DNA from: a virus
IMG/VR virus record: IMGVR_UViG_3300047548_000772
Coordinates: 1-64,000 of that record
Strand: one strand, 5' to 3'
DNA: 64,000 bases
This document shows, one piece after another, positions 24,751 through 48,074 of the stretch (position 1 is its first letter; every line of letters begins with the position of its first letter). The position numbers were made by a program, and so were the translations under genes. Under the pieces are notes generated by a model that saw only the letters and a list, made by a program, of their open reading frames with translations, searched no databases and was not told where the DNA came from.

Positions 24751-25278
24751 ATGGAATATAGCGGATACGTTTATCTAATTGGGTCTCCAGTATTTGGATG
24801 GTACAAGATCGGAAAATCAATTACACCCGAGGTACGAATTAAAGATCTGGGAATTCTATTACCATTTAAGATCCACGTAATCGGTGTTTGGGGTGCTAAA
24901 AACCATCATCAGTTAGAACGAGCACTACACGAGATTCATAAATCTCGGCGCATAAATGGTGAATGGTTTGAATTCTCTAAAAAGGAAGTATATGAAGAAG
25001 TATTTGGAAAAATACCAGAAGAAGTTAGAGTGTATCCGATTGAGAATGACGAACATTTTTTAGACAAATTTTCAAACATTGATGAAGATACTAAAGGTGT
25101 CCGAAAAGTCATTGGTGTTCGTACACAAAAACTTCGAGGTAATTTTACACCAGAAGAACGTGAGGCAAAACGTCTAGCAGCAATAGAAAAACAAAAAGAA
25201 AAGAAAAGACAACGTGATAACTTAAAAGAAATTAAGTCTAATATGGGTTTTAGTCGTATAGGGAGAAACAATATATAA
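24751..25278 (+). CDS. T5orf172/GIY-YIG-like nuclease domain protein
   Basis: GYVYLI...YKIGKS...RIKDL...ERALH...GEWF. Confidence 0.85.
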   Translation: MEYSGYVYLIGSPVFGWYKIGKSITPEVRIKDLGILLPFKIHVIGVWGAKNHHQLERALHEIHKSRRINGEWFEFSKKEVYEEVFGKIPEEVRVYPIENDEHFLDKFSNIDEDTKGVRKVIGVRTQKLRGNFTPEEREAKRLAAIEKQKEKKRQRDNLKEIKSNMGFSRIGRNNI

Positions 25279-28560: not shown

Positions 28561-28833
28561 GTACTGTAGTAAAGTGTAATAGGCAACGCGAGCCTGCTGG
28601 CACTATAAACATCGGCTATAATGAGGGCGGCCTACCGGATGAGAAGGTTACGGCGGTAACGTAACTGGTAAAAAGGTAGCGTAGTAAAGCAGATTGTAGT
28701 CGGTTCAACTCCGGCAGCATCTAGGACGCTAGATGCATAGTCAGCAGTCTGTTTTACTACACACATTCTGGAACCAAATGGGAGTGAAAAGTCCGTGGCG
28801 GAGTGTGTTATAAATCAAGCAGTTACAACGTGG

Positions 28834-28895
28834 TTGACCAGAAATCACCATTTTGCTATAATGTAGTCATAGTAAGTAATAAACGTTCATTAACA
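28834..28895 (+). promoter_or_regulatory. sigma70 promoter plus boxA-like element
   Basis: TTGACC-N17-TATAAT; CGTTCATTAACA at 28884. Confidence 0.75.
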
Positions 28896-29636
28896 ATTTG
28901 GAGAGTGCTAGTTAGTTGTTTACAACCTAGCTGGCACCATAGTAAAGACTATTATAGATGGAGGGCGACCCGTCACTGGATAATCGACAGGAAGTCTATA
29001 GTGGTCTTCACTATGGTAACCTGAAACTTGATACAGAGTAAGTGGGGGAGTAAAGACCCCCGGGCTGATCTGAGTCAAGCGGATAAGAGTTTAAGGTATG
29101 TTGGGCGTCTTGCTCCGATATACTACTCAGGAAATCTGAAGTCATTGTATAGTGTCATGGTTGCATATACCTTGGCTGAACGGTGGAACTACTCGAATGT
29201 GTGCGCACACAAGCTGAGACTATCACTAAGTAGGTTAGGACAAGGTGGTCTAGGTTCGATTCCTAGTACAATGGCTATACTCAACATGAACGCAGACGTC
29301 TAATAGACTATCTGTAATTAGTGCAAACTAGTTTAGAGTTGGTCTAGCCAAAACCAACTCACCATATTAAAGCACATTGGTCCGGAACTTGGTGGTTGGT
29401 TGAAGTCCAACGACGAGGCATCATTGGCAGCATGGTAAGATCCTAGTGTGTTCTAATATGGTTTACGAGTAGACCCAGGACGGGGTGTGGTGATTACCAT
29501 CATTCTAGATTCCTTGAGGTTCGAGTCCTCTGCTACTCTCTGGGGCAAACAGCAGGGCCTGAGATGGCCAGCTCAACGGTTGTTAGTGACGATGGGTGGT
29601 ATCGGAACTATCAAGAACAATAAAGCCTAACCGGGC

Positions 29637-29702
29637 TTGACAACAAATAGCATTATTGCTATACTGTTGAAACTGTAGTAAAGCAATAACTGATCTTTAA
29701 CA
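29637..29702 (+). promoter_or_regulatory. sigma70 promoter plus boxA-like element
   Basis: TTGACA-N17-TATACT; TGATCTTTAACA at 29691. Confidence 0.75.
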
Positions 29703-29986
29703 ATTTAGTAGATATACACATGCACACAAATGCGTAGGCCACGCAGATATGGCGGGTACATAGCAAAGTTCCCTGTAACAGGGCTTTGTTGGCAGGTTCG
29801 AGTCCTGTGAGTGTGCAGTTGTATATCTATTAAACCATATTGAAGCATACTTTTGCCTAAATAGGGTGCCAACTTCACCCGAAGCACAAGGAAGTCTAGG
29901 AGTAGCTACCTAGCAGGATTGTGCGAAGTCACAGACGACATTGGCAATCGTTTGGGAGTGTGCTACAATATGGTTTAAAAGGATTT

Positions 29987-30845
29987 GGGGGCATAGCCTC
30001 GTTAGAATAACTGTCGCGAGACAGCCAAAGCAGAGTCGTCCTACACGCCTGCGCCAGCAATGGTTCATCTATGCAAGCCTGCTCACTATGGCGACATAGC
30101 GTTCACTGATAAGACCGGTGGATGTAACAGTGAAGCAAGTGTATGGGGAAGAACGTTTGCTCAAGCGCCAGCAATGGTAACGCAAGTAGACGAAAAGTAA
30201 CAGGTGGTGCTGACTTCCATACAAACCAACTTGTCAACTGGTATGAGAAAGGGTAGTGTTCGTGTCCGAGGTGTCGCAGCCAAGGGCTAGAACGCAATGT
30301 TAGTGGTTAGTGGCAACTGCTGTGAAGCGTTGACATCGATCGCAAAACATGACTGAGTAGACCGCGAGTCAAAAGGTACTTGGTGTGTTGTATTGGGTAT
30401 TCCAAAAGAGTATTCAGCAACTGAGGCAGCACATCATCGTAGGTTGCAACTAGCTCATTGGTAGAGCATCTCAATGTTAATGAGACGGCAGTTGGTTCAA
30501 ATCCAACGTTGTTTACAAAAATGCAAAGTCTGCCTCTCGTGGTAACGAAAATGGCCTAATACTTGACACGTAAGTGAATCAAGTTACCTAAATGCCGCAA
30601 GCAAATAGGTATCGGTTAGAATAATTTCGTAAGGGTTTAGCGACCTTGAACTGCTCGCAAGGCAGACGGAATTTGAATAGTCGAGTAGTTATCACGGTAA
30701 CGAGAAAAGCAACTCGTAAAAATGCGGCCATGGTATTGGACTTATCTACCGCAAGGGGGTAAGTGGATGAGAAAGGAAAGTTTCCCGCAAGGAGATCATA
30801 ATCTTTCGAGGCAATACTAGGATTCCGTATAATCTCAGCGGCTTC
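29987..30845 (+). ncRNA. probable GOLLD RNA
   Basis: ~860 nt, many GNRA hairpins, segments matching recalled GOLLD consensus (CAAACCAAC, AAAACATG..GAGTAG, GCAACTGAG..AGCACATC, GAATAGTCGAGTA, TAATCTCAGCG); beside tRNAs; ends approximate. Confidence 0.72.
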
Positions 30846-30897
30846 ACTTTAAAACAGCAGACTTTGCGTTTTGATAAATAAGTAGGCAGGAGAAATT

Positions 30898-31452
30898 ATG
30901 TTCTACTTATATCAGATCACAAACACTAAAAACGGTAAGATATACGTCGGAGTTCACAAGACAAGTAATCCAAACGATGATTATATGGGGTCAGGGCATT
31001 TAATAAAACGTGCAATTAACAAGTACGGTAAGGAAAACTTTACTAAGACTATACTTGCATCGTTTAAAAATAGAGAAGACGCATATAAAGCAGAGTCCGA
31101 AATAGTTACACCCGAATTCTTGTTACGCGAAGATGTGTATAACATTAATAAAGGCGGCGACGGTGGTTACTACCATGTAAACCAATCTAAAACCCCAGAA
31201 CAAAGAACAACTCATTCTCGTCTTGGTGCTGTAGCAATACACTCAAGAACTGAGGAAGAAAAACAAGCAACGTTTAGTAAAATCAGTGCAGCACTAACTG
31301 GTAAGAAATATAGAAAAGGTGTTATAACAACACCAGAAGAAACAAGTAGAAAACGTAAGGAAAAAATGGTAGGGAAGAAATTACACCCTATCACAAGAAA
31401 ATGGGTTAGTAGAGAAGAATATGATGCCTACATCAATTCAACAGCCTGCTAA
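30898..31452 (+). CDS. GIY-YIG homing endonuclease (Seg-like)
   Basis: YLYQITNTKNGKIYVGVH, YMGSG, VYNINKGG; ATAAATA at 30874. Confidence 0.9.
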   Translation: MFYLYQITNTKNGKIYVGVHKTSNPNDDYMGSGHLIKRAINKYGKENFTKTILASFKNREDAYKAESEIVTPEFLLREDVYNINKGGDGGYYHVNQSKTPEQRTTHSRLGAVAIHSRTEEEKQATFSKISAALTGKKYRKGVITTPEETSRKRKEKMVGKKLHPITRKWVSREEYDAYINSTAC

Positions 31453-31979
31453 CTTATGGTTCCGTAGCAATACGGGCCATATTGAAACACACTAAAGATA
31501 AGCCGGTACTGGTTCGAAACAGGACGCCTCGTTTAGTGTGTTTCGATATGGTAAAGAGGTGTACAACTCTTCCTTCCGGTGGTGGAAATTTACCTGTACA
31601 GGGAAAAACCGGTGCCATATTGAAACATACTGCATAAGTGACGGCGGGCAAACAGTTGAGTACGCAACTGTCGGCAAAGTGTGTTTCCATATGGTGAATA
31701 AACGGGGGATACGCTGACGATGTTTTGCGTATCTTAAACGACGGTAACATAACATCCGCGCCCCTTACGAGTTTTGCAAGTGTTAGCAAGAGAACGGCAC
31801 GTTAGCAAGGTGTTCGAAAACCGAGCTAATGTAAAGCAGTGGAGGGCGCGAATCCCTAGCAAAAAATAAGGGACACTGGCTTAGTACCCCAAGTAACGGA
31901 TCACCACCTGGCCCGGGCTTAATGCAATCAGGTGAATGGTAGAGATAAAGGTGACTCTACTACTTGCAAAATCTTTAAT

Positions 31980-32064
31980 GGGTAGGTGGGTGAGTGGTTA
32001 AAACCATCAGACTGTAAATCTGACGCCTCCGGCTACGCTGGTTCGAATCCAGCCCTGCCCACCA
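31980..32064 (+). tRNA. tRNA-Tyr(GUA)
   Basis: cloverleaf, variable arm, CCA. Confidence 0.96.
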
Positions 32065-32086
32065 CTTTGTAGCACAGCAAATTTTT

Positions 32087-32162
32087 GCTCCTATCGTCTA
32101 GAGGCCTAGGACACCACCCTTTCACGGTGGATACAGGGGTTCGAATCCCCTTGGGAGTGCCA
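32087..32162 (+). tRNA. tRNA-Glu(UUC)
   Basis: cloverleaf, CCA. Confidence 0.96.
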
Positions 32163-32282
32163 GTTCCGGTCTGAGGTCGCTCCTCAGCGCAAACGTCAGC
32201 GTAGGCGTGACAGCCGAGGGAGAGTCCACGGACATATTCAAAAATATCTCAGTGCGCAATAACTCCTATTAAATAGAAAGTT

Positions 32283-33248
32283 ATGAAAAAAATATTAATT
32301 CTAGGCGCAGGCGGATTTATTGGAACACACTTAACCAATGATCTAAAAAACAAAGGTCACTATGTTATTGGAGCAGACTTAAAGTATCCTAAGTTTTCCA
32401 AAACAACTGCAGATGAGTTTTATATTGCCGACCTGCGCGACACAATCGCAGTAGAAAAATTAATTACGTCTGACATTGACATGATTTATCAACTAGCAGC
32501 CGACATGGGCGGCGCTGGATATATCTTTGTTGGCAACAATGACGCCGATATAATGCATAATTCAGCAAAGATTAATATCAATGTTGTAGAAGCAATGGTC
32601 AAGTCAGGTGTAAAAAATGTATTATTCACGTCCAGTGCATGTGTTTACCCACAGGGCAACCAAGAAAATTTAGATACACTTTGTATTACAGAATCATCAG
32701 CATACCCGGCCGATCCAGACAGTGATTATGGCTGGGAAAAATTGTTTAGTGAAAGATTGTATCTAGCATTTGCTCGTAACTACAATCTTAATGTTCGTGT
32801 TGTTAGATTACATAACGTGTTTGGTCCACTTTGTAGTTGGAACGACGGGCGTGAAAAGTCCCCAGCAGCATTGTGCCGTAAAGTTGCAATGGCCAAAAAC
32901 AACGACACCATTGACGTATGGGGTGATGGCACTCAAGTTAGAAGCTTTTTGTTCATTGATCAATGTTTAGAAGGAATTCAACGCATAGTCGATGGCAATT
33001 ATTGTCAACCTCTGAACTTAGGCAGCGATAGAATGATTTCTATCAATGACCTTGCTAAACTAATATCAACTATAGCCGAGAAGCAAATAACTATTAACAA
33101 TATTCCTGGTCCAAAAGGCGTTAACTTTAGAACCAGCGACAATACATTAATTAATGAACAATTGGGTTGGTGCCCAAAAGACAATCTAGAATACGGATTA
33201 CAAAAAACGTATTTCTGGATATTAGATCAAATTAAGGATTCTCAATGA
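32283..33248 (+). CDS. NAD-dependent epimerase (GDP-mannose 3,5-epimerase-like)
   Basis: GAGGFIG, LAADMGGAGYI, YGWEK. Confidence 0.92.
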   Translation: MKKILILGAGGFIGTHLTNDLKNKGHYVIGADLKYPKFSKTTADEFYIADLRDTIAVEKLITSDIDMIYQLAADMGGAGYIFVGNNDADIMHNSAKININVVEAMVKSGVKNVLFTSSACVYPQGNQENLDTLCITESSAYPADPDSDYGWEKLFSERLYLAFARNYNLNVRVVRLHNVFGPLCSWNDGREKSPAALCRKVAMAKNNDTIDVWGDGTQVRSFLFIDQCLEGIQRIVDGNYCQPLNLGSDRMISINDLAKLISTIAEKQITINNIPGPKGVNFRTSDNTLINEQLGWCPKDNLEYGLQKTYFWILDQIKDSQ

Positions 33249-34387
33249 ACGTAGGTATTATTGGTGTAGGTAAGTTAGGTCTTGCTTATGCATTGGTTTT
33301 TGAACAACTAGGTCACAATGTTGTGGCTAGTAGCTATAAACAAGATTATGTTGATCAGTTATTAAAAAAACAAATCGACAGTCCTGAGCCCGGCATCGAA
33401 GAGTCTCTAAAAAAATCAAACATCGATTTTACCATTGACAACCATCATGTTATCAACTTGTGTGATATAATTTATGTTATGGTTGCTACTCCGAGTACAC
33501 CTGAAGGTGACTACGATGTTTCTGCTGTTGATTTAGTAGTGCAAGATTTTATTAACCACCAAGGTCCAGTCGCTGGTAAGATTCTAATTGTAGGTAGTAC
33601 TGTTAACCCAGGAAACTGCCAAAAGATTCAAGAATTACTAAATCCATTTGGTGTTAATGTCGTATATTGTCCTACATTTGCAGCACAAGGAACTGTAATG
33701 CGTAACATTCGAGATCCAAAAAGTTTACTTTTAGGCACAAACAATGTCGAAGTTGCAGAACAATGTAGGAAACTATTTATCGAAGTGTGTGGCGAAGATA
33801 CACCTGTGCACATTGTTGAACCAACAACTGCTGAGATTTTAAAACTAGCAGGAAATTGCAAAGCCACACTCGAAATTAGTTTCTTTAACATGATTTCACA
33901 AATCGTAATTAATGCTGGATTAAAACACAATTTAGATCAAGTTGATAGATACTTAAATCTTGTCAAAACCAAACAACAATGGGGCCACGGATTTGGATTC
34001 GGCGGACCTTGTTTTCCCCGAGACAATCGCTCAATGGTGCATTACGCAAACAAGTTAGGCATCGACTTTCGATTAGGCAATACCATTGATGAATTCAATC
34101 AACAACACGTTAAATTCTTGACTAATTATTTCCTACAAGACAACATCAATGACTTGCCTTACTACTTTGAGTATATTACCTACAAACCAGGTGTTAACAT
34201 TCTCGAAGAAAGTCATCAACTAAAAGTCTGTAAGAAGTTACTCGAGGCTGGCAAACAAGTCTATGTCGAAAATACAAAGTTCTTGTTACCGTTTATCATT
34301 GACGAATTATCGGCGCAATATCCAAACATCGAGTTCGTTACCCTAGCAGAAAAAAACATTCCTGTATATAACGTAACCGCATACTAA
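33245..34387 (+). CDS. UDP-glucose/GDP-mannose dehydrogenase family protein
   Basis: GVGKLG, VATPS, STVNPG, GFGGPCFPRD. Confidence 0.92.
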   Translation: MNVGIIGVGKLGLAYALVFEQLGHNVVASSYKQDYVDQLLKKQIDSPEPGIEESLKKSNIDFTIDNHHVINLCDIIYVMVATPSTPEGDYDVSAVDLVVQDFINHQGPVAGKILIVGSTVNPGNCQKIQELLNPFGVNVVYCPTFAAQGTVMRNIRDPKSLLLGTNNVEVAEQCRKLFIEVCGEDTPVHIVEPTTAEILKLAGNCKATLEISFFNMISQIVINAGLKHNLDQVDRYLNLVKTKQQWGHGFGFGGPCFPRDNRSMVHYANKLGIDFRLGNTIDEFNQQHVKFLTNYFLQDNINDLPYYFEYITYKPGVNILEESHQLKVCKKLLEAGKQVYVENTKFLLPFIIDELSAQYPNIEFVTLAEKNIPVYNVTAY

Positions 34388-34533
34388 AATGTTTAGCTGG
34401 CCAGACTGGTTATACAAACTGTGGGCACTATTTCTAAGATGTATCTTAGTGCCCCTTAGTTTACCCGTTCGTGCAGTCGAGCGGTTGACAGGAAATACGT
34501 TTCCGCGCAATAATATTGAAAAATACAGAACAA

Positions 34534-34610
34534 GCACCGTTAGATCAGTTGGTTAGATCGTCTGCCTGTCACGCAGAAGGCCAGGGGTTCGAGTCCCCTA
34601 CGGTGCGCCA
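34534..34610 (+). tRNA. tRNA-Asp(GUC)
   Basis: cloverleaf, CCA. Confidence 0.96.
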
Positions 34611-34798
34611 TAATTTAGTATAGACGCTGAGATCAGAAGGCAAACGAGTACCCAGGGCTCCGCAGTAATGGATCATGGTTTTAAGCCCGTAACGGTAGAA
34701 AACTCTCTCAAGCGAGACAATCCTGCAAGGGCTACCCAGGTAGCATAGCAGGGCGACTAAATCGCATTGGGGGGTGTGCGAAATCACCTCCCACCAAT

Positions 34799-34883
34799 TA
34801 CCGGTTCGCATAGCGGCGATTGCAGCGGTCTCCAAAACCGCCGACGGAAGTCCACGGGGGTTCGAGTCCCTCACCGGTAGCCA
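34799..34883 (+). tRNA. tRNA with CCA (Trp) anticodon and long variable arm
   Basis: GCGGT-CT-CCA-AA-ACCGC, GAC-GGAA-GTC variable stem, G73-CCA. Confidence 0.85.
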
Positions 34884-34919
34884 AACAACTGTAATTGTCA
34901 GATGTGAGAGAAAGGAAAA

Positions 34920-35123
34920 TTGACAATGTATCGAATAGTATATGATGATCAAGAAGAAGTTTTTGCTAGCCTTGGGTTAGCAATGGAACGGGCACAAGCC
35001 ATTCCACACTTTGTAACCATTTCAGGTAATGGTTATGATATAGTAGGGCGTTTTGGTGTAGATGCTGTTGTAGCAGGAGTACTGCCTAATGGCACAGACT
35101 ACACTTGGCGTAAACGTAGATAA
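34920..35123 (+). CDS. small hypothetical protein
   Basis: AAGGA RBS. Confidence 0.6.
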   Translation: MTMYRIVYDDQEEVFASLGLAMERAQAIPHFVTISGNGYDIVGRFGVDAVVAGVLPNGTDYTWRKRR

Positions 35124-35469
35124 AGGAGAGTATTGTGGCACACAAGCAACAAGGTATCCGTACTCCGAGCCCTCAATGGTGGAAACACTTGCGAGATTGG
35201 AAGCGTGTGTTTTGGAAGGCAGAACGCCAAGCGCACAAAAAGGAAATGAATAAACAAAAAGGAGAGTAGCATGAAGGCATGGTATCGCAAGTACAATGAT
35301 CGACAGTTAAACTCTAGTACATATCACAAAAAGGATGGCACAAATATTCGTGCTAAACTTAAACAATTTTATAAAAAGGAAATGACATGAAACGTGCGAA
35401 ACGTTAGTGTCGACTCTGGAACCCGTATGGTCCTTAGTCGGCACGTAAAATAAATTTACATACGACTAT

Positions 35470-35545
35470 CCCTTTCAGGTGTTGTTGGTAGCATACATGA
35501 CTCTTAATCATCGAGGGCAGAGTTCAAATCTCTGGGGAGGGACCA
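35470..35545 (+). tRNA. tRNA-Lys(CUU)
   Basis: cloverleaf with G-U pairs, CCA. Confidence 0.85.
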
Positions 35546-35548
35546 TAT

Positions 35549-35624
35549 GGGAGTATGGTGAAATGGTTATCACAGCAGACTTTTAATCTGCCAGTTCAGG
35601 GTTCGAGTCCCTGTGCTCCTACCA
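35549..35624 (+). tRNA. tRNA-Lys(UUU)
   Basis: cloverleaf, CCA. Confidence 0.95.
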
Positions 35625-35729
35625 TATAGAAACACATTAGTCCGGGTCATGTTGGTTGGTTGAAGTCCAACGAAAAGGCAGCATTGGCGACATGGTAAGA
35701 TCCTAGTGTGCTTCTATATGGTAAACAAT

Positions 35730-35804
35730 TCTCGTGTAGCTCAGTGGTAGAGCAGCGGCTTGATAAGCCGTTGGTCACAAGTTCAAATCTTGTCGCGAGA
35801 ACCA
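35730..35804 (+). tRNA. tRNA-Ile(GAU)
   Basis: cloverleaf, CCA. Confidence 0.95.
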
Positions 35805-35814
35805 TACAATTTGT

Positions 35815-35891
35815 TGGGGATTAGCCAAGTCTGGTAAGGCAGCGGATTTTGATTCCGCCATGCAGAGGTTCGAATCCTTTATCCCCAGCCA
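35815..35891 (+). tRNA. tRNA-Gln(UUG)
   Basis: cloverleaf, U1-A72, CCA. Confidence 0.95.
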
Positions 35892-36023
35892 AACAGTTAA
35901 GCCTGGCGGGGGTATATCACTTGCTCGTAGTACCGTAGTTATATGGTGAGCAACATCGGTAGGGTGCGAGGCCCTATGGGTTTGCCGTTAATCCCAACAC
36001 GCCCCGGAGGTAACGGCACTAAT

Positions 36024-36098
36024 GGTGTTGTTAGTGTAGTGGTAACACGACGGATTGTGATTCCGTTATCACGAGTTCGAACCTCGTACGACACCCCA
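36024..36098 (+). tRNA. tRNA-His(GUG)
   Basis: G-1/C73, cloverleaf. Confidence 0.95.
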
Positions 36099-36201
36099 AA
36101 ATTCGGATAAATGTATCCAAAACTTGTCAACGAAACATAGCTCTCCTGCGTTAATAGTAGTGTAAGCACAACGCTTACAGTTCATTCTAAAGGAGACTAA
36201 C

Positions 36202-36417
36202 ATGAACAAGTTTGCCGTTATTGTAGCATCACTATTTGCTGTAACCGCTTTTGCTGCCGAGCCAGCTAAAACCGAAACCAAGGTCGAAGCCAAACCCGCT
36301 GTAACTGCTCCTGCTAAGGAAGTTAAAAAGGACGCAACGCCTGCAAAAAGCGAAAAGCCTGCTGTCAAGAACGAAAAAGCGGCAACTAAGCCTGCTGCTG
36401 ATAAGCCAGCAAAGTAA
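36202..36417 (+). CDS. secreted low-complexity Ala/Lys/Pro-rich protein
   Basis: AAGGAG RBS, signal peptide ending AFA, KPA repeats. Confidence 0.75.
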   Translation: MNKFAVIVASLFAVTAFAAEPAKTETKVEAKPAVTAPAKEVKKDATPAKSEKPAVKNEKAATKPAADKPAK

Positions 36418-36633
36418 TCACGAGTTTGAACCTAGCAACGATGTTATACCTGATTCAGATGACTTAGATATACATCGTAGTTATAGTAGACCCAAACTTA
36501 TCACTGTTGATCCGGACGACAGTGATATTTCAGATCGCGTAAAACTCAGATTATTTCTTGCTCGACAAAAGGCTGTCGAAAAACACAGAGAGGTTTGGGG
36601 CACAACCGCCCTTTAACCTCTCTTCTATTTTAT

Positions 36634-36711
36634 GGTGCAGTGGCCGAGTGGACCAAGGCAACTGTCTGCAAAACAGTAAAACCACAAGTTCGAATCTTGT
36701 CTGCACCTCCA
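36634..36711 (+). tRNA. tRNA-Cys(GCA)
   Basis: cloverleaf, U73-CCA. Confidence 0.95.
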
Positions 36712-36714
36712 ACG

Positions 36715-36894
36715 CTAACGGTTGTGTCCTCGTATAAACCAGGATTCTTGATACAACTGTTTTCTAACTTCATCTTCGCTGTAATCAAACGTCTGGCTAC
36801 ACAGTGAAATAAATTTTTCGTGATCTTGCTCTATTTCGTGTAGACTTTGCCCTTGGCACCAACCGTGGTACAATGCTCTTGCATATTCTATCAT
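36715..36894 (-). CDS. small hypothetical protein
   Basis: minus-strand ORF MIEYARALY... Confidence 0.5.
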   Translation of the reverse strand: MIEYARALYHGWCQGQSLHEIEQDHEKFISLCSQTFDYSEDEVRKQLYQESWFIRGHNR

Positions 36895-37101
36895 AGTATA
36901 AATATTTATAGTGCAACGCAGCATTTAAAAGCCCAGTTAAAGGAACTAGTATGACTGATAAACAAAAGTTGTTAGCAGAAGTACTAAAACTCAAAATGTA
37001 CCTACTAGGTATATCAAATAAGCATCAACTCACTGTTTACACAGAAGATATGCTAGAGCGTGTCAACGACATAATTACAGCAGTAGAAGAATGTCGAGAC
37101 A

Positions 37102-39213
37102 ATGATTGATATACTATTTTGTGCAATACCTTACAGTAATTTAGACCACATCTATAGCGCACCGGCAATCCTTAAAGGGGTTGTAACTGAAAACGGATAT
37201 ACTGCTAAAACTGTGGAATTTGGGCATGAGCTTTTTAAACTATGCAACAATGACGTTGACTTGTTTACCAGCGTCCAGCAGTACTTTATTTCGAACAAAA
37301 ACGAAGATAAAGTAGTCCTAGATATCGTTGAAAACTTTTACAACAACACTATATCTTATTTTAAAAATAACCCATCTCTCTATATTGGCATCAGCGTATT
37401 TTCAGTATGGACTCACAAGACCACGTGGGAGTTGCTAACACGTATCAAACAAGAAAATATTTCTAGCAAAATAATTATCGGTGGTACCGGTGCAAACGTT
37501 GGCCCTTATAGAATGTTTAACGATTTGTTTCAATTGCGTGGACTAGAAAAAACATTAAAGTATGGTAAGTTGTTAGAAAAAAGAAACTTAGCCGACTATG
37601 TAGTTCTTGGCGACGGCGAAGATGCAATTCTTAACATACTACAAAACAACAATGGCTTTGATACCAACGTTATCGACACTCAACATCGTAGTGAGTTTTT
37701 TAGGTCACCGATTCCAGATTATAGCGACTACGACTTTAGCTTTTATCGCTTTGCCGATGGAGAAATACGTTGGCCAATTACCGGCAGCAAGGGCTGTGTA
37801 AGAGATTGCGATTTTTGCGACATTGCTAAACAATTTGGAAAGTATCGTTATCGCGGTGGAAAAGACATAGCCAATGAAATGATTGAGATCGCTAACACCA
37901 AAGGTGCGAGAAAATTTAACTTTTCAGACAGTTTGGTCAATGGCGGGCTTAAACCGTTTAAAGAATTTTTAGAAATTGTTGGTGACTACAACGATTCAAA
38001 TCCATCTAAGGCTATCACTTGGTCTGGACAATATATATGTAGACCCGACGTTCCTGATGAAATGTATGATCTAATAAAACGCAGCGGTGGTGAAGGCCTA
38101 ACCATCGGCGCTGAAAGCGGAAGCAACGCTGTACTTGCAGCAATGAACAAAAAGACCACAGTAGAGGCACTATATGCCGAGCTTGAAAAATTTAGTAAAC
38201 GCAAGATCACTTGTGTCTTACTGCTCATGGTTGGACACTGGTCGGAAACATGGGACGACTTTGTTGACCATTGCCGAATGATTGTAAACATTGCGCCTTA
38301 TGTGCGTTCAGGTTGTGTGTCAGGTGTTCGTGCAGGATTGCCAATGATCATGCACGATCAAACACCGGCGTGGGAAAACAAAGAACAAAATCAAATTATT
38401 ATCAGTGATTTCGATCCGAATAATATTTGGTACTGCGGTATCAATCCTTCTAACACGTACAAAGAACGTATTTTTAGAAAATTATTGGTAGTAGATCTTT
38501 GCAAGAAGATGCGCATACCTTTGTTGGGCGAAACTGAAGATTACCTACAATGCTCAGCAGTTATGGGATCAAACAAAGAAAAAATTGTCGAGTTTTATCA
38601 ACAGTTTGGCATAGACTTTGATGAACCAACAGAAGCAGAAAAACATTTAGCTAACTTTGATCAATTTGTCAATGAACTAACTCATAAGAATTCGCTGGAA
38701 TTAGACTTAACTGTCGTTGCCAGCGAGTGCAATGGCATGCCTAATTTACAAATTCTCAAGGATGGCAATTTGATTTATAACAAGTTGCTGAACAATGGAA
38801 CTCATATTATTAAATTACAGTTACCACAATGCGATACTAATAACCTTAGTTTCAAAATGAGCAACAAAGATGCAGCAGCCGATACCAAGGTAATCAACGG
38901 CAACGTAGTAGAAGATAAATTTATAGAAATAAAATCTTTAAAAATTGACAACTACGACTTATGCGCAGACCCAGATTTTTTCCGCGGTCAGATTGAATAC
39001 GTTGACGATCTTGCTGGTAAAGTTGATGTCAAATTTGGATTTTGGAATAACGGCACAATGTCCTTAAGCTATCCTAAAGAGTTTCAGCTTTGGTACCAGC
39101 ATCAAAGTAGTAAATATGCATCTCCAGAATCCGAGTCGGCGTATCGAGAATTCTTAAACACCGCATCAACTTCAACCAGAGAAAAGTTAGTAAAATTAGT
39201 AACATCAAAATAA
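37102..39213 (+). CDS. B12-binding-type (class B-like) radical SAM protein
   Basis: KGCVRDCDFC, FSDSLVNG, IGAESGS. Confidence 0.88.
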   Translation: MIDILFCAIPYSNLDHIYSAPAILKGVVTENGYTAKTVEFGHELFKLCNNDVDLFTSVQQYFISNKNEDKVVLDIVENFYNNTISYFKNNPSLYIGISVFSVWTHKTTWELLTRIKQENISSKIIIGGTGANVGPYRMFNDLFQLRGLEKTLKYGKLLEKRNLADYVVLGDGEDAILNILQNNNGFDTNVIDTQHRSEFFRSPIPDYSDYDFSFYRFADGEIRWPITGSKGCVRDCDFCDIAKQFGKYRYRGGKDIANEMIEIANTKGARKFNFSDSLVNGGLKPFKEFLEIVGDYNDSNPSKAITWSGQYICRPDVPDEMYDLIKRSGGEGLTIGAESGSNAVLAAMNKKTTVEALYAELEKFSKRKITCVLLLMVGHWSETWDDFVDHCRMIVNIAPYVRSGCVSGVRAGLPMIMHDQTPAWENKEQNQIIISDFDPNNIWYCGINPSNTYKERIFRKLLVVDLCKKMRIPLLGETEDYLQCSAVMGSNKEKIVEFYQQFGIDFDEPTEAEKHLANFDQFVNELTHKNSLELDLTVVASECNGMPNLQILKDGNLIYNKLLNNGTHIIKLQLPQCDTNNLSFKMSNKDAAADTKVINGNVVEDKFIEIKSLKIDNYDLCADPDFFRGQIEYVDDLAGKVDVKFGFWNNGTMSLSYPKEFQLWYQHQSSKYASPESESAYREFLNTASTSTREKLVKLVTSK

Positions 39214-39220
39214 GATTATA

Positions 39221-39310
39221 GGAAGTGTGGCAGAGTCCGGTTTATTGCAACAGTCTTGAAAACTGTCGATCAGAAATGGTCCGTGAGTTCGAATCTCACC
39301 GCTTCCGCCA
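39221..39310 (+). tRNA. tRNA-Ser(UGA)
   Basis: long variable arm, G73-CCA. Confidence 0.96.
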
Positions 39311-39522
39311 ATAAATAAGTTTATGACACAAGTTATTAACTTTCACCAAGCAAAATCACAGCGCCAACGTGAAGCTGTTGTTCGTAGTTTTTACGACATG
39401 TTTAACTACGCAATTGACTTTTTTATTCACTACTGGTTTTACCCATTGGTTGCTGCTGTAGAAACAGTACGCCGTAGACAACTAGTAGTGCTTTAACACT
39501 ATTTCGTCCCATCGACGTTGGT

Positions 39523-40848
39523 GTGATCAATAAATATCACACCATGAGTAGCTACGCACATATTGTACTAGACCGAAGTTGTTTAAACTTCCAAAGTATT
39601 AGTGCGAATCAAGTTGTAACCGATATTTGTGCAAAATATTGCAATCAAGATAATTTGGTGTTGATACTAAACATAATCTATGAGTGTGCGATTCATGAAA
39701 ACTTCTTAGACAAAGTCGCTGAGACAATCGAAAAATTAAAAAAAGCACAGCCGACATGGAAAGTTTTGTTGTTGTGTAATACTTGGCATCAATCACAGAA
39801 AAAAACTTTTCTTGCCGATGGTGTGTTGTACATAGATTTTTTTCTATACAGAATCTATAGAGAATCTATTGTTTTTCGACGCAATAGTCAACCAAGTCCT
39901 TGGAACCACAATGCATCAAAGTTTTTGTTTTTAACTGGCGTACCAACGTCGGAAAACAGAGTTAAGTTGTTGTACAAATTACAACAAGCAAATTTATTAA
40001 AAGATTGCAAATGGTCTTTGTTTGGTTTTGGACAGCACAGAGAAGAAAATATTGCTCATGTGTGCAATCAAATTCCAGAACTTAGCAGAGACGAGATTAT
40101 AAAATTTGTCGACGAGCATGAGCAAACACTCGATGATATAACAATACCTGCTATTGATGATTTAGCAGAACCCACGTACAATGGCATTATGTACGATGTG
40201 AACTTTTATGCTCAAACAAAGTTTTCAATAGTGCCAGAAACACTTTACTCAAATCCATGGAACAGTCAAACTATCGCTGATAATCCATGGCTTACTGAAA
40301 AAACGTGGAGAACAATCCTTAACAATCATCCTTTTATAATGGCGTCGACTCCAAACACATTAAAAAAGCTCAACTCAATGTCTTTTCAAACATACGAGCA
40401 CACGTTGCCGTTTCCTGATTACGACAGCACACAAGACAAAGAAGATCGACTTGCTAAGATTGTTGCAAATGCTGAATACTGGACACATAACATTGTATCT
40501 CATACTAACGATATCAACAACATGGTCAAATACAATGCTGACTTGGTTCGTACAATGTATTTTCAAAATTTAGATAAAATTAACAATTTTATCAAGCAAC
40601 ATAACTTATCAATGTCATGTGACGATCTTGTTAACACTGGGTCGGATCACCAACGTTTTTATACCGGCGATCAAATACGCCAATTTGAAGCTGACAATCA
40701 TTTTAAAAACTTTTATAATGACATACGCGATCCATCGTGGCCCGAGTGTGCCAAGGAATCGGATTTCTTTTTATTGCCAAAGCACGTTCAGCAAGAGTGC
40801 ACCGACACATTTGGTTATAAACCAAACACAAATGTAATTATGCCCTAG
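39523..40848 (+). CDS. hypothetical protein, possibly polysaccharide-related
   Basis: FSIVPET...LTEKTWRTILNNHPF; stop lies inside next tRNA. Confidence 0.7.
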   Translation: MINKYHTMSSYAHIVLDRSCLNFQSISANQVVTDICAKYCNQDNLVLILNIIYECAIHENFLDKVAETIEKLKKAQPTWKVLLLCNTWHQSQKKTFLADGVLYIDFFLYRIYRESIVFRRNSQPSPWNHNASKFLFLTGVPTSENRVKLLYKLQQANLLKDCKWSLFGFGQHREENIAHVCNQIPELSRDEIIKFVDEHEQTLDDITIPAIDDLAEPTYNGIMYDVNFYAQTKFSIVPETLYSNPWNSQTIADNPWLTEKTWRTILNNHPFIMASTPNTLKKLNSMSFQTYEHTLPFPDYDSTQDKEDRLAKIVANAEYWTHNIVSHTNDINNMVKYNADLVRTMYFQNLDKINNFIKQHNLSMSCDDLVNTGSDHQRFYTGDQIRQFEADNHFKNFYNDIRDPSWPECAKESDFFLLPKHVQQECTDTFGYKPNTNVIMP

Positions 40849-40921
40849 TGGCGGAACTGTGGAAGACGCATCTGCTTAAGAGGCAGACACATTGCGGGTT
40901 CGAATCCCGCCTAGGGTACCA
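40842..40921 (+). tRNA. tRNA-Leu(AAG), short variable loop
   Basis: TCTGC-TT-AAG-AG-GCAGA, A73-CCA. Confidence 0.75.
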
Positions 40922-40922
40922 T

Positions 40923-40996
40923 GCTCCTATAGTATAATGGCATTACACTACATTGGTAATGTAGCAACCCTGGATCGTAACCAGGTGGGAGCACCA
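40923..40996 (+). tRNA. tRNA-Thr(GGU)
   Basis: cloverleaf; atypical T-loop ATCGTAA. Confidence 0.85.
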
Positions 40997-40997
40997 A

Positions 40998-41236
40998 TTA
41001 CTTTTTGCTAAATTGTCGGCTAATAGTGTTACGACGATGTTTTAAGTAACTGTCAGTTGAGTTAACTCGACCGTCGTTATTGATATCCGAGTCTTCATGT
41101 CCAACTGGGTCTAAGTTTTCACCAACTTTGCCCCAACCAGATTTAGCACGAATAGCAAACGCAAGTTCACGCATACGCCTGACATCATGTGGTTTTCAAG
41201 CAAGATATTTTTAAATTTTCTAATTGGATCGTTCAT
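40998..41236 (-). pseudogene. frameshifted small protein with EF-hand-like DxNNDG repeat
   Basis: AAGGAG+ATG frame differs by 1 nt from the frame encoding [28 protein letters not shown]. Confidence 0.5.
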
Positions 41237-41302
41237 CTGTTACTCCTTTAAAAGTACTTAACGGTTGACAAGAAATACAGTACTGTACTAAAGTTATATG
41301 AT

Positions 41303-41380
41303 GCGCCCGTAGCTCAGTCGGATTAGAGTATCACGCTACGAACGTGAGGGTCGGAGGTTCAAGTCCTTCCGGGTGCGCCA
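41303..41380 (+). tRNA. tRNA-Arg(ACG)
   Basis: cloverleaf, CCA. Confidence 0.96.
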
Positions 41381-41389
41381 AAATAGAGG

Positions 41390-41450
41390 TTGACCACTAA
41401 TTAAATTGTTGCTATAATAGTGGCTTAATAAGTAGTACTGTTCATTAACA
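41390..41450 (+). promoter_or_regulatory. sigma70 promoter plus boxA-like element
   Basis: TTGACC-N17-TATAAT; TGTTCATTAACA at 41439. Confidence 0.78.
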
Positions 41451-41462
41451 ATTTAGAACAAT

Positions 41463-41547
41463 GCCCCGGTGGCGAAATTGGTAGACGCACCAGATTTAGG
41501 TTCTGGCGCAGAAATGTGTGTCGGTTCGAGTCCGACCTGGGGCACCA
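41463..41547 (+). tRNA. tRNA-Leu(UAG)
   Basis: cloverleaf, variable arm. Confidence 0.96.
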
Positions 41548-41805
41548 TATTGAAATACGTTTCGAGTCCATGTCTCCTCCGCCTAGGTAAGGAGGGTTAG
41601 CGTATTTCAATATGGTTGTAAACGCAGTTGGTACTAACCAAAGTTGCCTGTTGGCGCAAGCAGGTGGGATTCCTGCAACTGCTAGAACTTTATAACCATA
41701 TGACGTTGGAAAGACAACTATGGCTCATGATTAAATCTGTGAACGATATTGGGGTTGGGCCGTTCCCAATATGCCGGATGTTTACACGTAACCGGCACGA
41801 ATTAT

Positions 41806-42883: not shown

Positions 42884-43369
42884 ATGAAAAACAGAGTTAC
42901 ACGACCCGGACTTGTTGCAATGAATCGCAAGATTGCTTGCCAGTATTGCAGTAAGGAAACTACCTTAGGAAACATTAAAAAACATGAAGATTCGTGTTAC
43001 CTGAATCCTAAGAATATAGTAAGTTGTAAAAATTGTGGTAGCCCAATTAAAAACTATAAGTCATCAAAAGGCACTTGTAGTCGCAGTTGTGCTAACACCC
43101 ATTTTAAAAGCGGCGAGAATAATGGAAATTGGAAAGGCACACAATACCAAACACTTTGCTTCTCGCAGCACAAGAAAGAGTGCATAATTTGCGGCGAGGA
43201 TAAAATAGTTGCGGTCCATCATTTAAATGAAGACCACAACGATAACAGAATTGAAAATTTAGTTCCGTTATGTCCTACGCATCATCAATATATGCACAGC
43301 AGATATAAATCAGAAATTCAACACAAAGTTGATGAGTATGTTAAGCAGTTTATTCTCAGTGTCGCTTAG
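42884..43369 (+). CDS. HNH homing endonuclease
   Basis: CIICG...VHHLNEDHNDNRIENLVPLCPTHH; ATAAATA at 42872. Confidence 0.92.
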   Translation: MKNRVTRPGLVAMNRKIACQYCSKETTLGNIKKHEDSCYLNPKNIVSCKNCGSPIKNYKSSKGTCSRSCANTHFKSGENNGNWKGTQYQTLCFSQHKKECIICGEDKIVAVHHLNEDHNDNRIENLVPLCPTHHQYMHSRYKSEIQHKVDEYVKQFILSVA

Positions 43370-46160: not shown

Positions 46161-46446
46161 TTCCTTCGTAGTGAAGGCGTCGTGGACGGCGGTTCGATTC
46201 CGCCCTGCTCCACCAAAAGCATGATCGACCATACACTAGTAATGGTGACATATAACAGATTGTGCTTCTGATGGGGCAGACCTGGTTTCGACAGGGCGAG
46301 ATAGCGAAAGAGGCAACACGAGAGTTGACTGACGTAATCAGCAAACAAAAAGTAAACGCAAACGATGAAGTTTACGCACTAGCTGCCTAAGATTAGGTAA
46401 GCAGGAGTTTTCTGCCGCTTTTCTTGACAACAGAATAAAGCGGCAA
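46161..46446 (+). ncRNA. ssrA: circularly permuted (two-piece) tmRNA
   Basis: acceptor piece ending CTGCTCC-A-CCA (46215), 57-nt spacer, GGGGCAG 5' end (46273), tag ANDEVYALAA* at 46358-46390; outer ends approximate. Confidence 0.93.
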
Positions 46447-47561: not shown

Positions 47562-48074
47562 ATGGGTAGAAAACATCAAACAAAGACATGTCCAAAATGT
47601 AAAAATAGTCATAACAAGTCTGGGGTATATTGCTCTAGGACATGTGCGAATAGTAGAATTTTTACAGAAGAATCGAGAAAAAAGAAAAGCAACGCCAATA
47701 AAACTTTTTGGAGTTCACTTAGCAACGACGAAAAGGAACACAAAAAACAACTTCTTAAAGAGATTTCTCCCAATTCTGTTAAAAATTATTTAGAATCGTT
47801 ATTGACCCAAGATTGGGATGTATTAGGAATTGCAGCAAAACGGTTGAGAGTTATCATAGAACAAAAAGGAAAATGTAACAAGTGCGGAATTTCTCACTGG
47901 AACGAGGAACGAATTACATTAGAATACGAACACATTGATGGCAACAACGGAAATAATTTAAGAGAGAATGTCGAAGTGCTTTGTCCAAATTGTCACAGCC
48001 AAACTAAAACTTGGCGCGGCAGAAAAAACAAGTCTCGACAAAAGAGGGTCGAAAACTTATTAGAGACACTCTAA
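47562..48074 (+). CDS. HNH homing endonuclease
   Basis: CNKCG...EHIDGNNGNNLRENVEVLCPNCH; ATAAATA at 47535. Confidence 0.92.
   Translation: MGRKHQTKTCPKCKNSHNKSGVYCSRTCANSRIFTEESRKKKSNANKTFWSSLSNDEKEHKKQLLKEISPNSVKNYLESLLTQDWDVLGIAAKRLRVIIEQKGKCNKCGISHWNEERITLEYEHIDGNNGNNLRENVEVLCPNCHSQTKTWRGRKNKSRQKRVENLLETL

Follow-up and report, generated by a model that had tools for sequence, protein, structure and literature searches.

Hairpin cassettes in register with tRNA CCA ends in the stable-RNA operons of uncultured phages: a candidate processing module

Introduction

The processing stalks of ribonuclease III (RNase III) in 16S and 23S ribosomal RNA (rRNA), and its early sites in phage T7, are long duplexes formed from the flanks of an RNA domain within a polycistronic stable-RNA transcript. 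In 23S rRNA, the intervening sequences (IVSs) found at helix 25/45 in Salmonella and Leptospira, among others, are sporadic, exchangeable stem-loops, conserved in the stem and variable at the top, and are excised by RNase III without re-ligation. Other small RNAs accompany transfer RNAs (tRNAs): the rnaC and rnaD RNAs of T4 and the tRNA-like stable RNAs of T5 are small, of unknown function, and co-transcribed and co-processed with phage tRNAs, and in the TMERs of murine gammaherpesvirus 68, a viral tRNA-shaped RNA is followed directly by a hairpin that is separated by tRNA 3′-end processing. In genes for two-piece transfer-messenger RNA (tmRNA; Rfam RF01850, RF04321), a spacer that the mature RNA lacks reaches from the acceptor-piece CCA to the RNase P site of the coding piece. 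Here we analyse a stretch of viral DNA (hereafter the window) that makes up the first 64,000 nt of the partial, 192-kb IMG/VR record IMGVR_UViG_3300047548_000772, and in which seven hairpin cassettes with a common stem lie in an island of tRNA genes.

Like the RNase III stalks, the cassettes have a boxA leader upstream, as in an rRNA-type operon, and a helix length within the range of the enzyme. Unlike the stalks, the cassette duplex, which would be the site of cleavage, starts on the upstream CCA, encloses a small variable RNA and not a mature product, and has one stem sequence that is common to at least 119 other viral contigs. The IVSs differ from the cassettes in that they lie inside rRNA, which they fragment, have no link to CCA and are unrelated in sequence; the T4 and T5 RNAs have neither a shared constant stem nor a cassette-like diversity; and the TMERs are eukaryotic (processed by RNase Z, then Dicer), with the CCA outside the hairpin and no constant stem. 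The two-piece tmRNA spacers of these phages carry the upper stem of the family, but the canonical cassettes lie between tRNAs or small RNAs and their stem is longer by five base pairs at the bottom. The module appears to be kin to known processing stems and to excised spacers of stable RNAs, and to be new as a variant. It is apparently undescribed: no description of it was found in the literature on the stem sequence, on GOLLD, tRNAs and phages, on two-piece tmRNA spacers or on the processing of phage tRNA clusters. Phage tRNA arrays are usually annotated as tRNAs and meaningless spacers, and much of the ‘spacer’ here is a conserved, widespread RNA module, phage-specific in our searches and in exact register on CCA, which must be free for a tRNA or tmRNA to work.

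Results and Discussion

Seven cassettes in the window share a long closing stem

In the stable-RNA island of the window, between 26.2 and 51.1 kb, 32 tRNA genes lie together with a gene for a two-piece tmRNA, all of them encoded on the + strand. The island also contains the seven hairpins, likewise on the + strand, whose stem has the family consensus CCAUAUUGAAGCACAUU in the 5′ arm and AGUGUGUUUCAAUAUGG in the 3′ arm. Scores with a covariance model of the stem are 49.3 bits for cassette 1 (28937–29016), in which the stem is diverged but compensated; 48.1 bits for cassette 2 (29362–29461); 38.1 bits for cassette 3 (29835–29973), which has a 105-nt interior and lies just upstream of the GOLLD region; 60.2 bits for cassette 4 (31477–31551); 51.9 bits for cassette 5 (31615–31694); 54.6 bits for cassette 6 (35622–35721), with tRNA-Ile beginning 8 nt downstream; and 53.0 bits for cassette 7 (41545–41615). 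A search with the 17-mer stem consensus, allowing up to three mismatches, found 12 arms, forming six hairpins, compared to 0.38 expected by chance. All seven hairpins, the compensated one included, fold with a long closing stem (z −2.9 to −6.7), and the covariance model recovers all seven with 38–60 bits on the + strand and 28–48 bits on the − strand, the + score always being the higher. The initial annotation of the window had listed at least seven elements, with these seven coordinates, and had suggested a covariance model of the stem as a check; all seven are confirmed.

Two cassettes begin on the end of a tRNA, as had been claimed. The tRNA-Lys(UUU) gene (35549–35624, + strand) and the tRNA-Leu(UAG) gene (41463–41547, + strand), both called by ARAGORN and Rfam, overlap cassettes 6 and 7, such that the encoded CCA at 35622–35624 supplies the first three stem bases of cassette 6 and the CCA at 41545–41547 is the start of cassette 7. 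Each of the five cassettes without a tRNA in front is preceded by a helix that ends 0–2 nt before the CCA. The clearest case is cassette 2, in front of which an 8-bp minihelix and an A (29336–29361, + strand; fold z −3.7) are positioned like an acceptor stem and discriminator base; this minihelix, and the hairpin ending at CCA that precedes cassette 1, had both been recognized earlier. Cassettes 4 and 5 are preceded, by inspection, by short helices ending 1–2 nt before the CCA.

A scan of the whole 192-kb record found no CCATA…TATGG hairpins beyond the seven, and all copies lie within the RNA island. Two matches to the pattern were rejected: the segment 16166–16229 lies in a promoter region and scores 12 bits with the covariance model, and 35543–35721 arises artefactually, from linking the 3′ arm of cassette 6 with the CCA of tRNA-Lys(CUU). 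The covariance model adds an eighth, divergent long-stem cassette at 28682–28759 (+ strand, 25.7 bits, E 5e-5; fold z −8.5), which has a 16-bp stem with wobbles at the usual places of the family, GUAGU and not CCAUA at the bottom, and a T-arm-like hairpin in its interior. A second kind of long-stem cassette, an inverted repeat of 15 + 7 bp with a different stem sequence (29704–29834, + strand; fold z −5.6), abuts cassette 3 directly; inside its stem is a three-way junction that has a canonical T-arm (CAGG-UUCGAGU-CCUG), and this segment has no match to the Rfam tRNA model and no ARAGORN tRNA call.

The stem is conserved and is selected as RNA of the tRNA strand

The stem pattern, searched in IMG/VR with a gap of 45–75 nt, matches at least 120 viral contigs, at least 119 besides this phage. 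We then collected CCATA…TATGG hairpins with at least 14 pairs from 120 listed IMG/VR loci and the window; this yielded 278 hairpins, 253 of them of no more than 200 nt, and removal of one artefact left 252 elements with 215 unique sequences. The stem is sharply bounded: positions 1–17 pair in nearly all elements and position 18 in most, while pairing is at background from position 19. On the outer side, the base before CCA is A in 182 elements and G in 52, the base after GG is U in 212, and these two usually pair, such that an extra base pair at each side often lengthens the 17-bp stem to 19.

Pairing of the stem is maintained through sequence change, as the initial annotation had noted. In a set of 48 elements whose interiors are unrelated, pairing over the 19-bp helix reaches 97.4%, compared to 29–49% in slid controls, and double changes occur at 12 of the 19 stem pairs, a number reached by 0 of 500 shuffles. 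The covariance model of the stem was built from this set. Compensatory swaps are found at stem positions 6, 7, 12, 14 and 15, with position 7 being U-A in 196 elements and A-U in 44. A U.G wobble occupies position 16 in 181 of the 253 elements, and position 11 is G.U in 81. The wobbles are strongly strand-biased: the ratio of G.U to A.C is 326:37 on the tRNA strand (186:22 if one element is taken per interior type), and the tRNA strand is the better-pairing strand in 210 elements, compared to 32 for the other. The excess of G.U over A.C on the tRNA strand shows that selection acts on the RNA of this strand. Between contigs, identity of the stem is 0.80–0.86 (raw), or about 0.72–0.81 without the ten positions fixed by the search; identity of the adjacent isoacceptor tRNAs is 0.67–0.77, close to the level of the stem, and the interiors are at background.

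The register on CCA recurs in other phages

An association with tRNA 3′ ends in other genomes, which the initial annotation had named as one test of its proposal, is found: 127 of the 253 elements begin exactly at an encoded tRNA CCA (offset −2). Among the remaining elements, 68 of 123 are preceded by a predicted helix of at least 5 bp that ends 0–2 nt before the CCA, compared to 107 of 600 random sites (18%) and 84% in a tRNA-adjacent positive control. In contexts other than tRNA, about 8% of the copies begin with CUA or UCA, and the 3′ arm keeps UGG. Cassettes can also occur in tandem, 2 nt apart. A downstream tRNA starts within 5 nt of the element in 48 cases and 6–20 nt after it in 45; where the next tRNA is this close, RNase P would define the 3′ border of the cassette.

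Hairpin use differs among tRNAs. A hairpin follows tRNA-Lys(UUU) in 25 of 56 cases, tRNA-Leu(UAG) in 24 of 64, tRNA-Glu(UUC) in 24 of 81 and tRNA-Gln(UUG) in 14 of 57, counts that are inflated by common ancestry, which may also be the cause of the uneven use, and in the 120 related loci no hairpin was found after Met, Asp, Pro, Ser, Ala, Trp, Val, His or Arg(UCU) tRNAs. The Lys(UUU), Glu(UUC) and Gln(UUG) tRNAs are those with a thiolated wobble U, the classic targets of anticodon nucleases.

The spacers of two-piece tmRNA genes are related to the family

There are four permuted tmRNA genes in our sample. If the spacer is counted from the acceptor-piece CCA up to, and not including, the 5′ G of the coding piece, each of the four spacers is a hairpin that starts at this CCA. 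The spacers of the tmRNAs at loci L057 and L102 carry the upper stem of the family, and the interior of the L057 spacer (cluster 6) is that of tRNA-spacer cassettes at three further loci (L095, L027 and L050). In the window, the intervening segment of the tmRNA (46213–46272, + strand) is a hairpin with the upper stem AAGCAU / GUGCUU, including a U.G, and in the predicted fold this hairpin stacks on the acceptor stem of the tmRNA. It is missed by the covariance model, and we regard it as a probable degenerate relative of the family stem, a homology that we draw from the L057 and L102 copies, in which it is clearer. The tmRNA gene contains none of the seven cassettes, and only short-stem variants are found in such genes (46213–46272 and those of L057, L102 and L113). 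As the spacer of a tmRNA must go if its CCA is to be charged with alanine, no other indirect evidence for excision of the family is as strong as that from the tmRNA genes.

The interiors are diverse, folded and exchanged

The 252 elements contain about 145 unrelated interior types, with no motif common to the interiors; about 10% have a T-loop motif beside the 3′ arm. One interior type can follow different tRNAs and, similarly, one junction can hold different interiors, the Leu(UAG)–Ala(UGC) junction having 5 types in 10 cases. In the window, the interiors of cassettes 2 and 6 are paralogs (91% over 54 nt), for which a search with 18-mers matched only an unrelated protein-coding gene, and the interior of cassette 4 has a homolog at L106:13009–13083. 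Helices covary within interior types, at columns 42/72, 43/71 and 50/63 in type A1, and at columns 33–37 with 50–54 in type A2, which indicates that the interiors fold as RNA and are more than random filler.

Cargo-less copies of 36–45 nt also exist; for example, L118:311–346 is a 36-nt cargo-less version of the 88-nt cassette L031:6870–6957. The existence of these copies, together with the sharing of one stem by 145 interior types, suggests that function centres on the stem. In relatives, empty or changed sites are seen as polymorphism in both presence and cargo at syntenic positions. Where L106 has two tandem cassettes, L003 has one chimera, with the 5′ arm of the first and the interior of the second, and we interpret this pair as the footprint of arm-to-arm recombination between neighbouring cassettes. 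Two further interpretations were rejected, that of a self-cleaving ribozyme because the interiors are mutually unrelated, and that of circularization because both ends pair together at a blunt helix end.

The module is found in uncultured phages

The 121 loci comprise 1.1 Mb with 1564 tRNAs, and tRNAs are present in 115 of them. By contrast, among 185,579 genomes of prokaryote species the pattern had a single match, L121 (CAZQNP010000058.1, 1478 bp), in a freshwater metagenome-assembled genome of Ca. Planktophila. This contig is probably mis-binned phage DNA, or else a hint of an actinobacterial host for some of the carriers. Mimicry of a host site was rejected, as the pattern is absent from the prokaryote species genomes bar L121. 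A blastn search against GenBank phages gave tRNA matches only, and these searches place the module in uncultured phages rather than in their hosts. Many of the carriers are T4-like, judging by the neighbouring genes in the related loci (T4 RNase H/FEN, dCMP deaminase, Hsp20 and HNH), and the complete carrier genomes are of 214–400 kb. Close relatives of this phage were sought via the neighbouring radical SAM genes, and none were found. In a permissive Rfam 15 scan of the region, the cassettes gave only weak look-alikes of miRNA precursors (E 0.5–4), and a scan of 14 related loci found tRNAs and one GOLLD only, with the interiors matching no family.

Promoters, boxA leaders and candidate nucleases

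Downstream of promoters and boxA leaders, the cassettes lie on one strand between tRNAs, with which they are presumably co-transcribed. Three promoter-like sequences of the window, all on the + strand and read from the sequence, are TTGACC-N17-TATAAT followed by an rrn boxA-like leader GTTCATTAACAATTT (28834–28899), TTGACA-N17-TATACT with boxA-like TGATCTTTAACAATTT (29637–29706), and TTGACC-N17-TATAAT with boxA-like GTTCATTAACAATTT ahead of tRNA-Leu(UAG) (41390–41454). The general layout is a sigma-70-type promoter, TTGACx-N17-TATAAT, with a boxA (GCTCTTTAACAA or GTTCATTAACAATTT) 20–40 nt on, and it recurs in L020, L008, L109, L015, L102, L113 and others. In the relatives, a boxB-like hairpin often precedes the boxA GCTCTTTAACAA, and a promoter lies within 75 nt of 23 of the 80 boxA-like matches on the tRNA strand of the related loci. 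These phage operons of tRNAs and small RNAs appear to have antitermination leaders of the rrn type.

Proteins that might act on the hairpins were sought in five large records, of which three are complete and one is the window's own. No gene for RNase III or for a double-stranded-RNA-binding domain (dsRBD) was found in them; if RNase III cuts the stem, the enzyme must therefore be that of the host. The Ro/TROVE protein (PF05731) is likewise absent from the five records, which therefore lend no support to the cassettes being bacterial Y RNAs, Ro-bound molecules with a long stem and a tRNA-like module. The commonest protein neighbour, found in 32 of the 120 related loci, is a YkuK/DUF458 (PF04308) protein of about 156 aa with an RNase H fold. 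Its gene (for example L043:3828–4298 on the − strand, G003:16954–17388 and G004:157192–157620) shares the tRNA strand in all 32 of these loci, lies 0–63 nt from a tRNA gene and is usually the first after the array; it is absent from the complete carrier genome G001 and from the partial record of the window. The YkuK-like protein may be a nuclease that processes the RNA of phage tRNA operons.

Excision of the hairpins and its alternatives

We favour the reading that the hairpins are ‘punctuation’ of phage stable-RNA operons that is excised, probably through cleavage by host RNase III, to free the upstream CCA, and we put the probability of this reading at about one half. The module is most likely a cleavage mark in the long tRNA transcript. 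The island of tRNAs and small RNAs would be transcribed from strong sigma-70-type promoters with boxA leaders like those of rRNA operons. In the transcript, the constant sequence after the CCA would pair with its complement 40–110 nt downstream, and the resulting duplex of 17–19 bp would include the CCA as well as, in many cases, the discriminator base. The duplex would be cut by an endonuclease specific for double strands, most probably the RNase III of the host; if a tRNA or the coding piece of a tmRNA closely follows, the 3′ border would be set by RNase P; and 3′ exonucleases would trim the stub back to the CCA to leave a mature, chargeable end. The interior with the stub of the stem would be a by-product, which may have gained functions of its own. 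RNase III cuts about 11 bp from the distal box, has natural substrates of up to about 20 bp, and is inhibited by GC pairs at key positions of the proximal box (PMC3867540). The stem, a regular helix of 17 bp that extends to 19, has a length that suits this enzyme, for which helices of about 11–22 bp are expected (PMC3867540); its positions 3–7 and 9–10 are almost always A-U or U-A, and the register of the boxes on the stem hinges on the cut site. The initial annotation had proposed a processing scaffold as one of two readings, and of this the RNA-level nature and the tie to tRNA 3′ ends fit the strand preference (210 versus 32), the wobble ratio (326:37), the register (127 of 253) and the tmRNA spacers; its further suggestions, that a paired CCA may gate tRNA maturation and that small RNAs with a function of their own may be released, are conjectures. 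Structure, RNA-level selection, register, distribution and kinship with the spacers are observed, and for every enzymatic step we infer what would happen. If the stem is a cut-here signal, it would show how giant phages mature their long stable-RNA transcripts, explain how the spacer of two-piece tmRNA is removed, and offer a compact, portable processing element.

Several observations weigh against excision by RNase III as the purpose of the stem. A hairpin follows only 128 of the 1527 CCA-ending tRNAs of the same arrays and, as most of these tRNAs have none, the module is no general requirement for tRNA release; the complete genomes of 214–400 kb hold one copy each in the interior-size class searched. 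The stem is about as conserved as the adjoining tRNAs, and some of its pairs almost never swap, position 10 being A-U in 249 of 253 elements. This conservation exceeds the known needs of RNase III and hints at a sequence-specific reader. The stem has no similarity to the RNase III sites of T7, at the positions that we take these sites to have: the best matches of the family arms in T7 are 12–13 of 17, at chance positions. The T7 sites do have a consensus of their own, such that the RNase III sites of one phage can share sequence. Finally, a throw-away spacer would not need the covarying helices of the interiors.

The main rival reading makes the hairpins themselves the products: stable small RNAs whose stem would serve as a clamp that resists nucleases or as a handle for a sequence-specific phage or host factor, with the work done by the variable interiors (for example as decoys, aptamers or tRNA mimics), which would be expressed by riding on tRNA processing. 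This reading has excision in common with the one we favour and differs in the target of selection, and sequence alone cannot separate the two; we consider it a serious, if tentative, possibility. It would account for interior helices that keep pairing through double changes in types A1 and A2, for the same interior appearing in different contexts, both after different tRNAs and inside a tmRNA spacer, for the turnover of 145 interior types at fixed junctions, for a stem as conserved as tRNAs with a near-fixed U.G at position 16 (181 of 253), and for the T-loop motif by the 3′ arm in about 10% of the interiors. It is less easily squared with the persistence of cargo-less copies, with interiors that have neither a common motif nor an Rfam match, or with the lack of a dsRBD or Ro/TROVE protein in the five large records, and some of the conservation of interiors could reflect recent exchange and not selection. 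If the interiors are functional, the roughly 145 types among the elements examined are a large unexplored pool of structured phage RNAs. A more speculative proposal, to which we give a low but real probability, is that the stem acts as an address label in a system of RNA cassettes specific to phages, in which a 17-bp duplex with its fixed U.G is recognized by a reader of its own; the YkuK/DUF458 nuclease adjoining the tRNA array in 32 of 120 loci would be a candidate for this reader. The cargo of such a system would be small structured RNAs with fast turnover, for example decoys or regulators directed against host defences or the translation apparatus, and their exchange by arm-to-arm recombination would be an RNA-level counterpart of integron cassettes.

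Two further explanations were weighed. Structural insulators or terminators, which would prevent misfolding of tRNAs, shield 3′ ends from exonucleases or end transcription, are suggested by the great stability of the hairpins, by the TTT that follows 28 of the 253, and by the last cassette of L118/L031, which is followed by six T, a ribosome-binding site and a start codon; some copies, such as this one, may double as terminators. As an account of the family this is very unlikely, since a CCA kept paired would leave the tRNA or tmRNA unchargeable unless the hairpin is removed, the stem is AU-rich at its base and the copies of the window have no U-tract, where an intrinsic terminator would have a GC-rich hairpin and a U-tract, and the sequence conservation is far above what an insulator needs. 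The second reading of the initial annotation, a miniature inverted-repeat element targeted to tRNA 3′ ends, we find very unlikely, and equally so a cassette moved by the homing endonucleases of the island to the CCA end of tRNA genes. Terminal inverted repeats around a variable interior, polymorphism of presence and cargo at syntenic sites, tandem copies 2 nt apart, and the HNH, GIY-YIG and T5orf172 endonuclease genes of the island are what such an element would lead one to expect. However, the two arms differ consistently, and the transitions between them leave G.U pairs on the tRNA strand but A.C pairs on the opposite one (326:37). No target-site duplication is present (the flanking N73 and U pair together and are not direct repeats), and no transposase is associated with the elements. 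Moreover, the elements are confined to tRNA arrays, with tRNAs in 115 of 121 loci and all copies of the 192-kb record in the island, and the one gain or loss that could be resolved, between L106 and L003, is a 5′-arm recombinant and not the footprint of an insertion.

Other features of the island

The stretches between cassettes at 29020–29330 and 29462–29630 contain no convincing gene, and have further T-arm-like motifs, for example GAGGTTCGAGTCCTC near 29515. Open reading frames of the automatic list within or near the first of these stretches are 28803–29024 and 29028–29303. Both stretches are probably more tRNA-like small RNAs that were missed by ARAGORN and the Rfam scan.

A GOLLD RNA, of which the conserved 3′ domain was matched (30380–30841, + strand; Rfam RF02032, 209 bits) and which has an embedded tRNA-Asn, forms part of the context of the cassettes and lies outside the hairpin family; a link between the two was rejected, as GOLLD is nearby in only 1 of 14 related loci. 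Endonuclease genes of the window are a T5orf172 gene (24751–25278), two HNH genes (42884–43369 and 47562–48074) and a SegE-like GIY-YIG homing-endonuclease gene (30898–31452). The last of these lies between the 3′ end of the GOLLD RNA at 30841 and the cassette that begins at 31477, as if it had been inserted between the two RNAs.

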